The notes beneath the pieces are model-generated. The model worked only from the letters and a program-made list of their open reading frames with translations, searched no databases and had not been told where the DNA came from. From Nannocystales bacterium (lineage in GTDB: Bacteria; Myxococcota_A; Polyangia; Nannocystales; Nannocystaceae), in assembly GCA_050633305.1 (NCBI GenBank), contig JBOEGF010000011.1, forward strand, positions 315,317-370,467: DNA of 55,151 bases, written 5' to 3'. This document shows positions 44,356 to 48,312 of the stretch, piece after piece; position 1 is the stretch's first letter, and every line of letters starts with the position of its first letter. A program made the position numbers and the translations under genes.

Positions 44356-44430
44356 CGGGGTGTGGCGCAGTTTGGCTAGCGCGCCTGTTTTGGGTACAGG
44401 AAGCCGGAGGTTCGAATCCTCTCACCCCGA
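44356..44430 (+). tRNA. tRNA-Pro(TGG)
   Basis: Acceptor CGGGGTG/CACCCCG, anticodon arm CCTGT-ttTGGgt-ACAGG, T-loop GGTTCGAATCC. CCA not encoded. Confidence 0.96.
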
Positions 44431-44487
44431 CTCGAACCCGCATCGTCTTCAACCTCTGTTGCTGGCGATGCGGGTTCGAACTTTTCT

Positions 44488-44561
<74 letters not shown>

Positions 44562-44562
44562 C

Positions 44563-45832: not shown

Positions 45833-46189
45833 TCATACTTTGATGGCGAGTGCGGCGTTGGCCATGATGTGGCGAGCCATGCCCAGGTTTCCTTGCTTTC
45901 GGTCGATCGCGAGGTAGAGAAACAGGGTCTTGCCGATCGGTCGGATGAGGTGCAGCTGGGAGGTGAGCGTGATGAGGATGTCCTCGATTCCGCCGTCGAT
46001 CTCCAGCTGGTCCATGACCCGAAGTTTGGCCCGGACCACGTCGGTGTTGCCGGCCGCTGCCACTTCGAGGTTGAGGCCGTTGCCCACAGTGCCCAGTGCC
46101 ATGCCGCTTTCATGGTCGACGAGTGCTGCGCCCAGGAAGCCTGTGATGTCGGACTCGAGTTTCTTGAGAGTGTCTTGTACGTTTTGCAT
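45833..46189 (-). CDS. Roadblock/LC7-like protein
   Basis: GFLGAALVD.ESGM.L, AAAGNT.VVRAK, IEDILITL..Q.H.IRP and NL.MAR, with SD GGAG. Confidence 0.85.
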   Translation of the reverse strand: MQNVQDTLKKLESDITGFLGAALVDHESGMALGTVGNGLNLEVAAAGNTDVVRAKLRVMDQLEIDGGIEDILITLTSQLHLIRPIGKTLFLYLAIDRKQGNLGMARHIMANAALAIKV

Positions 46190-46249
46190 GTCTATCTCCG
46201 CTGATTGAGTGGTGAGAAAAGTGGCTGGCTGGCTCCGTTGGGGGGCGCA

Positions 46250-47059
46250 TCAGCCGGGTGTTTCGTCGCGCGAGTCCGCGTGACGCAAGAGGCTGTCGAC
46301 GATCTCCGTCGCCGCAGGACCAAAGAGGTGTTCGAGGGCTTGTTTGCGTAGCGTTTGAGCCTGCTGGAGCTGCGCAGCGGCAGCGGCCAGATCCGATGCC
46401 CCCTGGTCCCTGAGCGCGGAGACCTCGGCCTCGTAATCGCGCGAACGGGTTTTTTCTTGAGCGAGGTCGGCGTGGGCGGCGACGAGTCGCTTCGCACGCT
46501 CGGCGGCTTGGGCCGCGGTGCGCTCGAGCTCGGCCTCGGCCGCTTTGCGCATCGTTCGCTCTTGGTCGAGTTGTTCCTGTTGGAACTGAAGCTGCTTGCG
46601 AACCCGGCGGGCCTGCTCTCGAAGAGGCCCGAGCTGGGTTTGCAGTCCCGAGTGGGCGGCTTCGACGGCGTCGGCGCGGGTGCGTTGCTGAGCCGCGTCT
46701 CGTTCGACGACGTCGAGTCGCTGCTGGAGCTCGAGTGCTCGAGTCGACGCCTGTTCGGCGGCAGCGCGGGCGGCCCGAAGCGATCTCTCCCCGGTCTGTA
46801 GTGCCGCTGTCAGCTCCTGCAGCTGGTTGGGGTCCTCGTGCCCCTCGCTCCCCTCCACCAGCGCTTCCAGTTGCCGCAGGCGATGGGCTTGGCGTCCGTT
46901 GATGTCGGTGAGTTGGGCGTTACGCGCGAGGGCCTCCTCCAGGCGCGTGACGACGTCGCCTTGCGCTGCGGGCGAGGCGGCTGGGTCTGTTCCGAGCGCC
47001 TCTTCCCGACGTCGGCCGCCGACCCATCGGCGGAGCCATCCATCATCGCTGTCGGTCAT
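46250..47059 (-). CDS. Coiled-coil protein with N-terminal amphipathic helix
   Basis: Starts MTDSDDGWLRRWVGG with an ATGA overlap; long Q/E/A/R heptad region. Confidence 0.75.
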   Translation of the reverse strand: MTDSDDGWLRRWVGGRRREEALGTDPAASPAAQGDVVTRLEEALARNAQLTDINGRQAHRLRQLEALVEGSEGHEDPNQLQELTAALQTGERSLRAARAAAEQASTRALELQQRLDVVERDAAQQRTRADAVEAAHSGLQTQLGPLREQARRVRKQLQFQQEQLDQERTMRKAAEAELERTAAQAAERAKRLVAAHADLAQEKTRSRDYEAEVSALRDQGASDLAAAAAQLQQAQTLRKQALEHLFGPAATEIVDSLLRHADSRDETPG

Positions 47060-47478
47060 GATGGGTCCTTGGGGGTCTGTGGCTCCTGTTGAAGCTCGAT
47101 CCACTGACGGACCCGGACAATCGCCATTCCGGCCGAGGCCGGGTCTTGGAGCACCACGGCGGTTTGGGTCTCGTCTGCAATGCCGACCACGAGGAGTCGC
47201 TGGTCGTGAACCGTGACCATCACGCGCGGTTGGCCGAGGTCCAGCTCTTGGGCGATTCGTCCAGCCAGCGATGTCTGTAGTTGGGCCCAGGACGCCGCTG
47301 TCGGACGTTGGGGCGTGGACTCTCGGTGAAAGAAGCGTTCGGGGTAGCGGCTCGATGCGCTGGTCCACGCGAACTCGATGCCCGGCAGCTCTTGCAGCGC
47401 GGTCCAGCCGGGAGGATCTCCATCCTCGGAGTCCGTCGGCCCGGAGGAGAGGGGCGTCTTGTTGGCGGTTGTAGGCAT
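47056..47478 (-). CDS. Divergent roadblock/LC7-like protein
   Basis: L.ELPGI..A...AA......IAQEL.LG......V......LVV......AVV.....AGM pattern, consistent with the roadblock fold. Confidence 0.6.
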   Translation of the reverse strand: MPTTANKTPLSSGPTDSEDGDPPGWTALQELPGIEFAWTSASSRYPERFFHRESTPQRPTAASWAQLQTSLAGRIAQELDLGQPRVMVTVHDQRLLVVGIADETQTAVVLQDPASAGMAIVRVRQWIELQQEPQTPKDPS

Positions 47479-47502
47479 CAGTGGAGCGAAAGAGGCCTGG
47501 CG

Positions 47503-48312
47503 TCACGGCTTGAACTCGGCGGCGGCGGTCGAGACCACGCGGCGAGCCATCGCGAGGTTACCCTCGGTCCGGTCCAGAACAACGCAGAGGAAGCGCGCAT
47601 CATCCACAGGTCGGAGGATGCAGAACCAGTGGTCCAGGCTAATCAGGATGTCCTCGAGCGTGCCCGCGAGGTCAAGCTGTTCGAGGAGCCGCATTTTCGC
47701 CTGGAGGAGCCCCTGGCTGCCCGACACGGCCAGTCGCGTGTTGTCGGGACTGCCCAGGGCACGCAGCGTCGTACCGTTGGCCTGGTCGACCAACGCGGCC
47801 GCGAGAAACCCGGCGACGCCCCGCTCGATGCTCGAGAGGCATTGGTGGCCTGCCGCGGAGCCGCTCGAGCTGGTCCCGAAGCTGGGCGTCAAAGGAGCGG
47901 CGGGCGTCTTTTCCGGAGTGTCCGCTGGCGCCGGACCGGAGCAGACGGGAGCCAACTCGGTGTTGGTCCTGCGACGTCGGACGGCCGCGGGGCGGCTCGT
48001 GAGTGCCGCGATGCGCTCGTCGTATTTGCCGTCGCGGAGCGAGATGCACATCTCACGATGCGAGTGCCGCATCAGCACTTGAATCTGGCCTCGGGAGTGG
48101 CGGTGGGCCCGGTACTCCGTCTTGCGTGAGGCGATCACCGTCCCGGCGAAGAAAATGTGCGAGTGGATGTGGCCGTGCGGTCCGCCGGAGTCTTCTGTCT
48201 GGACGTGGAACAATCGTCCCTGGTGACGGAAGTTGTGGTTGTACCCGAACTGGAGCTCCTGGCCGGCCGGCGGGCCTTCCACGGATGAGGTGCTCTCTTG
48301 AACGGTGGTCAT
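47503..48312 (-). CDS. RomY N-terminal-like domain fused to a roadblock/LC7-like domain
   Basis: N-terminal GYNHNFRHQGRLFHVQTEDSG..H.HSH.F..G..IAS.KT.Y...LM..SH.EM...L..G.YD; the C-terminal domain is paralogous to 45833..46189. Confidence 0.75.
   Translation of the reverse strand: MTTVQESTSSVEGPPAGQELQFGYNHNFRHQGRLFHVQTEDSGGPHGHIHSHIFFAGTVIASRKTEYRAHRHSRGQIQVLMRHSHREMCISLRDGKYDERIAALTSRPAAVRRRRTNTELAPVCSGPAPADTPEKTPAAPLTPSFGTSSSGSAAGHQCLSSIERGVAGFLAAALVDQANGTTLRALGSPDNTRLAVSGSQGLLQAKMRLLEQLDLAGTLEDILISLDHWFCILRPVDDARFLCVVLDRTEGNLAMARRVVSTAAAEFKP

Follow-up and report, generated by a model that had tools for sequence, protein, structure and literature searches.

A four-gene operon of Nannocystaceae with a RomY-N::roadblock fusion as a candidate variant of the MglA regulator

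Genes of the operon and their setting

The operon lies in a window of 55,151 nucleotides (the whole stretch of DNA that was analyzed) from a genome of 11.0 Mb with 66% GC and 92% completeness (G000); the named close homologs belong to Nannocystaceae. It consists of four co-oriented open reading frames (ORFs) on the minus strand, G1-G2-G3-G4, which span 45833..48312. G1 (P0001; 47503..48312, minus strand; 269 aa) carries a RomY N-terminal domain (RomY-N), a linker and a divergent roadblock, and G2 (P0002; 47056..47478, minus strand; 140 aa) is a divergent roadblock of a small family. G3 (P0003; 46250..47059, minus strand; 269 aa) is a long coiled coil and predicted scaffold, and G4 (P0004; 45833..46189, minus strand; 118 aa) is a roadblock by itself, from a large and highly conserved family that has no name. 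G1 and G2 are separated by 24 nt and G3 and G4 by 60 nt; G2 and G3 share an ATGA overlap, through which they are predicted to be translationally coupled. The initial annotation had described four co-oriented genes with this spacing, three roadblock-type domains, and no GTPase in or next to the operon. We reproduced the spacing and assigned the three domains to the C-terminal part of G1, to G2 and to G4. No MglA-family gene or other small GTPase was found in or beside the operon, nor was a histidine kinase; the contig has its nearest MglA-family gene at a distance of ~152 kb from the operon.

The operon is flanked by a convergent strictosidine-synthase-like gene and, upstream, by a TPR-like gene and rlmN. 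The nearby ndk and a P-loop selU-like gene are assigned to the chromosomal neighborhood and not to the operon; these neighbors are kept in two related genomes (G002, G006) and absent at the copies of G004, G016 and the metagenome contig L338. Genes for tRNA-Pro and tRNA-Arg lie at 44356-44562 of the window, ~1.3 kb past the operon end. A search of the operon for a sigma-70 promoter and a minus-strand terminator found neither. The GC content of the operon resembles that of its flanks; therefore, we see no sign of recent transfer. A longer ORF for G1 starting at GTG 48387 was dropped because homologs begin near ATG 48312.

Selection was assessed as dN/dS against two same-genus orthologs. With dS near saturation, the rough values were ~0.11 for the RomY-N of G1, 0.2-0.3 for its roadblock and 0.7-0.8 for its linker, 0.2-0.4 for G2, 0.4 for G3, and 0.09-0.14 for G4. 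All four genes are under purifying selection by these values, most strongly in RomY-N and G4 and least in the G1 linker, and the ORFs are not due to chance.

Domains encoded by the operon

In G1, RomY-N covers residues ~21-105, followed by a disordered linker (~108-144) and a divergent G4-family roadblock (~150-269). Residues 21-99 match the NCBIfam model RomY_Nterm (NF053858) at 87.1 bits against a cut-off of 50, and the AlphaFold model of G1 contains two confident domains with a low-confidence linker between them. The C-terminal domain matched MglC/MglB in Foldseek (E 1e-5), and its comparison with M. xanthus MglB (VIA) gave Z 15.3 and rmsd 2.3 for 119 residues, a match that was tied with archaeal and Streptomyces roadblocks (Z 15.6-14.8 to roadblocks). 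The domain is predicted to adopt the Roadblock/LC7 fold (helix, three strands, helix, strands, helix). The RomY-N-like::roadblock fusion named in the initial annotation was thus borne out by the NF053858 score and the likeness to MglB, and the Foldseek check proposed there confirmed the roadblock. These fold searches were dominated by the roadblock part, and the fold of RomY-N was barely probed. We found no RomY structure in the PDB, no solved RomY or roadblock matched G1 by sequence, and word-pattern scans of genome and metagenome contigs with G1 returned no relative.

The RomY-N of G1 is 46% identical to the RomY-N of the stand-alone romY in its own genome. Across 77 stand-alone RomY-like proteins, a set whose orthology is confirmed for part only, 25 columns reach at least 90% conservation; G1 retains 22 of them, and its three changes are conservative. 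G1 ends in the roadblock where the C-terminal motif of RomY would be; this acidic/hydrophobic motif is present in the canonical romY on C19 and absent from G1. In a weakly resolved RomY-N tree, 15 of 20 fusion domains fell on the same side as 17 of 18 Nannocystaceae RomY (branch support 93/84, not starred), and the fusion branches were longer than those of canonical RomY-N. Repeated origin of the fusion is possible (four changes in the tree), and a single origin is also compatible; the RomY-N and G4 trees have few columns, and neither settles the origin.

G4 is probably of the roadblock type, on account of its homology to the G1 roadblock (39% identity, E 2.5e-23) and an Atlas feature score of 0.94 to a putative Roadblock/LAMTOR2 cluster. 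Its relatives form 7,157 clusters, many of them ~60% identical in Streptomyces/Kitasatospora, and neither Pfam nor NCBIfam has a name for the family. The gathering score of Pfam PF03259 (23) was passed by no roadblock of the operon: G1 reached 14.3 bits at best (E 0.036), and G2 and G4 had no match. The comparison with the MglB and MglC roadblocks made at the outset did not extend to orthology, as hhalign against the MglB of this genome gave probabilities of 0.12 for G4 and 0.5 for G2, neither significant with these shallow profiles. G4 has no C-terminal helix extension of the MglB type; an Ala-Gly-Asn run is common to G4 and helix 2 of MglB in a non-significant alignment. The roadblocks of the operon appear to belong to an unnamed family and not to be orthologs of MglB or MglC. 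This genome holds only three G4-family matches and no REC-DUF4388-G4 fusion. One G4 copy that is 91% identical lies on a 2.5-kb contig (G000:C82:1857-2210), behind an ssb-like fragment and amid repeats common to other small contigs; it is possibly mobile DNA or derived from a second strain.

The Atlas model of G2 superposed on Robl_LC7 models with TM 0.75-0.83, which agrees with its first description as a divergent roadblock. The G2 family has 29 representatives; 11 of the 26 scanned gave a weak or passing match to Robl_LC7 or MAPKK1_Int, two of them above the cut-off, and the family profile matched a solved roadblock at E 0.0011. In a profile search of the genome, G2 was the sole match; the scans showed no sequence match between G2 and a gene on C18 that we take to be MglC-like, and G2 and G4 were not significantly related by profile (probability 0.09-0.18). 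For G3, the reading as a coiled coil was upheld by composition (residues 36-243 are 73% E/Q/R/K/A/L, with 2 Pro) and by SMC/Rad50-type matches that were weak and below the cut-off. The N-terminus of G3 carries a Trp/basic motif, GWLRRWVGG, which we presume by analogy to be a membrane-targeting amphipathic helix; its hydrophobic moment of 0.51 is no higher than that of windows in the coiled coil of G3 itself (up to 0.75). The Trp motif was present in all 11 compared proteins (G3 included) that are encoded downstream of G2 homologs; 16 G2 matches were inspected, the weakest of which are other roadblocks with other neighbors.

In other genera, G2-G3 pairs adjoin response regulators and ABC-ATPase/phosphatase genes and no GTPase. 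A recurrent cassette there consists of a response regulator, an unnamed 380-aa helical protein, a roadblock, an ABC-type ATPase that is often fused to a dual-specificity phosphatase (DSP), G2, and a G3-like coiled coil (L240:5090-8246, L241:7797-11846, L041:7456-16229, L269:3247-9059, L244, L328). This genome encodes two homologs of the 380-aa protein, both as isolated genes (C14:481539 and C36:50287).

Distribution, neighboring genes and alternative readings

A synteny survey, suggested together with the initial annotation, showed that 4 of the 72 genomes of the order, from two genera, have the full arrangement G1-G2-G3-G4 (G000, G002, G004 and G016), as does a single metagenome contig (L338). 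The RomY-N::roadblock fusion is more widespread (15 of the 72 genomes, from 7 of 17 genera) and is frequently accompanied by G4 only or repeated in tandem; the four-gene order is missing from 11 of the 15 fusion genomes, and G2-G3 are absent at most fusion loci. No fusion spanning both domains occurred in 297 genomes of the phylum outside the family in a first look with stricter settings, so that this count of zero is a floor. The operon appears restricted to part of one family. In G006, only G1 and G4 lie behind the same rlmN/ndk neighborhood (L033:7354-8749); therefore, G2 and G3 came or went together in this genus. None of 17 fusion loci of relatives, some on short contigs, had an MglA match.

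Three RomY-N::roadblock fusions stand at one locus of G016, and G076 has a tandem pair; these multi-fusion loci are L034:8240-13122 and L261:7577-10006. Such extra copies would suit a dosage role, in which the tethered RomY-N acts as a decoy or titrator that sequesters MglA or MglB on the scaffold and opposes canonical RomY. The missing C-terminal motif of G1 points the same way, and titration of MglB by RomY is raised in PMC13408092. However, RomY-N alone stimulates GAP activity in vitro (PMC9481161), and the core residues are kept in G1. We consider this role improbable.

The neighbors of G4-family genes bear on a different proposal, that the operon is a GTPase-independent roadblock hub of receiver/PATAN and kinase/phosphatase signaling, with RomY-N co-opted for another target. 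Among the 80 best genome loci, nearly all in Actinomycetota, none has an MglA-family gene within 4 kb; the sole GTPase match (L059), presumably a translation release factor, is not MglA and was rejected. The 79 metagenome loci, mostly short, are likewise all free of a GTPase. We distinguished four settings of G4-family genes. The first is an actinobacterial operon of four genes, free of a GTPase, in which an unnamed protein is encoded together with two roadblocks of the G4 type and one that resembles MglB (L052-L130; Streptomyces, Kitasatospora, Actinoplanes), and this three-roadblock operon accounts for 67 of the 80 loci. It may correspond to the clade of orphan MglB from actinobacteria that PMC4316618 notes. 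In the second setting, the G4 domain is fused to REC-DUF4388 beside histidine kinases; in the third, a G4-like gene accompanies the 380-aa protein, the ABC-type ATPase (often DSP-fused) and the G2-G3 pair. In the fourth, G4 lies within 3 kb of a long-tailed MglA-like GTPase, which held for 15 of 58 G4 matches in the order under thresholds chosen after seeing the lists (G4 at least 120 bits, long MglA at least 185 bits), with many rows from one genus.

The first three settings favor the hub, as do the 43 of 58 strong G4 matches without a long MglA within 3 kb and a G4 tree in which the G4 of the window branches apart from GTPase-linked copies (SH-aLRT 91, not starred). RomY-N also occurs with a ParA-type ATPase: at L246:7544-8860 (also L247 and L249), a divergent RomY-N-like domain is fused behind a ParA/MinD-type ATPase, near a response regulator, the ATPase call by Pfam applying to L246 only. 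RomY-N in relatives is additionally fused to unknown regions; therefore, the domain is not exclusive to MglA control. The hub is weakened by the strong conservation of RomY-N towards canonical RomY and by the genome itself, which has no REC-DUF4388-G4 fusion to serve and three G4-family matches only. In addition, the sole tested function of RomY-N, within the part of PMC9481161 that could be consulted, is on MglA/MglB. We regard the hub as rather unlikely. PATAN genes near some mglA genes are described in PMC4316618 (and in Makarova 2006 as cited there).

In this genome, canonical mglB and mglA are paired on C15, and a stand-alone romY lies on C19. The listing of MglA paralogs that had been proposed gave two GTPases, the canonical MglA and the one ~152 kb from the operon, which lies beside a histidine kinase (C11:208319) and which we take to be SofG-like; a profile of distant MglA paralogs found only these two in the 92% complete assembly. 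A long MglA was present in 5 of the 15 fusion genomes, always unlinked to the fusion; two of the genomes with the four-gene operon, G002 and G004, are among these, each with one orphan long MglA. None was found in G000, G016 and eight other fusion genomes (10 of 15), which suggests that the fusion needs no private GTPase.

The long MglA belongs to what looks like a second Mgl-like system, in which a long-tailed MglA (~500 aa or more, with a conserved unnamed C-terminal region) is accompanied by a G4-family pair. These loci often add REC-DUF4388 and a kinase and sometimes a RomY paralog (L267:7068-11114, L268:6970-10948, L270, L271, L286, L287 and L294; further L044, L045, L274, L326 and L327), and at L274 the long-tailed GTPase is fused to a roadblock. 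Of 27 long-MglA loci (at least 185 bits), 15 carry a G4-family roadblock within 3 kb, and three (L267, L268 and L274; two genera) carry a stand-alone RomY-N gene. G4 pairs beside a long MglA were found in three genera of the family and in three genomes outside it (L046, L326, L327). These GTPases have a PGQ-type G3 motif, and nine of ten inspected keep the intrinsic arginine. RomY-N and the G4 family thus come together in two ways, in one fused chain and as neighbors of a GTPase. The G4 family could be the GAP platform of a second Mgl system, in which a long-tailed MglA would work with two roadblocks, a paralog of RomY and REC-PATAN input. The regulator half would have left the GTPase, fused RomY-N and joined a membrane-bound coiled-coil scaffold, and the Nannocystaceae fusion would be an MglB-independent single-chain co-GAP/GAP. 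Taken jointly, we find these propositions unlikely.

The initial annotation had seen a self-contained GAP and second switch acting on an MglA-family GTPase. Its link to the MglA family is supported by the intact RomY-N and by relatives in which a long MglA has G4-family roadblocks and a RomY paralog at its sides; the self-contained switch is possible and, for this genome, less likely than a second RomY acting on MglA-MglB. Here, a dimer of the G1 roadblock and G4 would replace MglB, with a tethered co-GAP, and act on an orphan paralog of MglA, which would be the long MglA in genomes that have one and the SofG-like GTPase in this genome. Such a role fits the G4 pairs that flank long MglA-like GTPases with the intrinsic arginine, the co-occurrence of operon and orphan long MglA in G002 and G004, and the Ala-Gly-Asn run, as helix 2 of MglB is the MglA-binding face (PMC6785124). 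However, ten fusion genomes, this one and G016 among them, show no long MglA, G4 has neither a significant sequence link to MglB nor its C-terminal helix extension, and the G1 roadblock has diverged and sits on a long branch in the G4-family tree. MglA/MglB pairs also coevolve (PMC4316618). Since the roadblocks do not appear to be MglB/MglC orthologs, the family is GTPase-free at 80 of 80 loci and no dedicated third GTPase was found in the genome, we judge a self-contained GAP unlikely.

A second RomY in trans and comparison with known systems

We tentatively favor, at somewhat less than an even chance, that the operon provides the ordinary MglA-MglB with another co-GAP, placed elsewhere in the cell and acting in trans. 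Ordinary MglA-MglB is the simplest target because a private GTPase was found neither in this genome nor in 10 of the 15 fusion genomes. The N-terminal helix of G3 would bind the membrane, and G3 would form a scaffold; G2, whose gene always directly precedes a G3-like one, would dock on it as an adaptor. The G1 roadblock would pair with G4 and, via G4, with G2, so that RomY-N would be parked on the scaffold and could, in the manner of RomY, contact MglA-GTP together with the MglB dimer. GTP hydrolysis would then be raised locally or under operon-expressing conditions, and reversal/motility behavior would be altered. In M. xanthus, the GAP-stimulating activity of RomY resides mostly in RomY-N, which is modeled against MglA and one MglB monomer (PMC9481161).

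We counted for the co-GAP in trans the 22 of 25 RomY columns kept, the 46% identity, the dN/dS of ~0.11, and the position of most fusion domains in the RomY-N tree on the side of Nannocystaceae RomY, as well as the 15 of 27 long-MglA loci with G4 and the three with a RomY-N gene. Against it, we counted RomY-N on a ParA/MinD-type ATPase, the longer fusion branches, and the G4 family being GTPase-free at 80 of 80 and 79 of 79 loci. The G2-G3 pairs that elsewhere lack a GTPase and are missing at most fusion loci, the unexceptional moment of the G3 motif (0.51) and the assembly completeness of 92% also count against it.

Full-text searches of the literature did not find a RomY-roadblock fusion or the G4 family; S1 Table of PMC9481161 may list fusions or paralogs. 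We consider the operon to be real, conserved, undescribed in the searched literature and a variant of the MglA regulator with a predicted mechanism. A natural RomY-N::roadblock fusion is a ready tethered construct for tests of the RomY mechanism, and RomY beside a different roadblock pair and an MglA paralog offers an independent coevolving set for them. The RomY complex is of low affinity, and to our knowledge the stimulation of MglB by RomY still awaits a mechanistic explanation. In addition, small-GTPase signaling is linked here to a roadblock family that is very large, unannotated and common in Streptomyces.

With the actinobacterial conservon (CvnA-D), the operon shares the character of a roadblock-containing signaling operon, and G4 homologs are abundant in Streptomyces; however, it has no histidine kinase or CvnD GTPase, and the G4 operon of actinobacteria is arranged differently and has no GTPase. 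MglC and RomR of M. xanthus have roles as polar adaptor and scaffold. The operon resembles them in coupling a divergent roadblock to a coiled-coil scaffold (PMC13408092), but G3 has a Trp/basic motif at its start and no receiver domain, and the scans gave no sequence match of G2 to the MglC-like gene of the genome. Orphan MglB homologs (328 of 749 MglB homologs are unlinked to a GTPase in PMC4316618) are alike in being GTPase-unlinked roadblocks, with G4 fused to REC-DUF4388 in relatives; in contrast, PF03259 and NCBIfam do not recognize the G4 family, and the consulted part of that paper describes neither a RomY fusion nor a coiled-coil partner. The operon is also similar to the bipartite MglB/RomY GAP of M. 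xanthus (PMC9481161): RomY-N scores above the cut-off, the roadblock superposes on MglB, and the operon lies away from mglBA, as romY does. It differs in that RomY-N is fused to a roadblock in place of the C-terminal motif, the roadblocks do not appear to be MglB orthologs, and the host genome keeps separate canonical romY, mglB and mglA.
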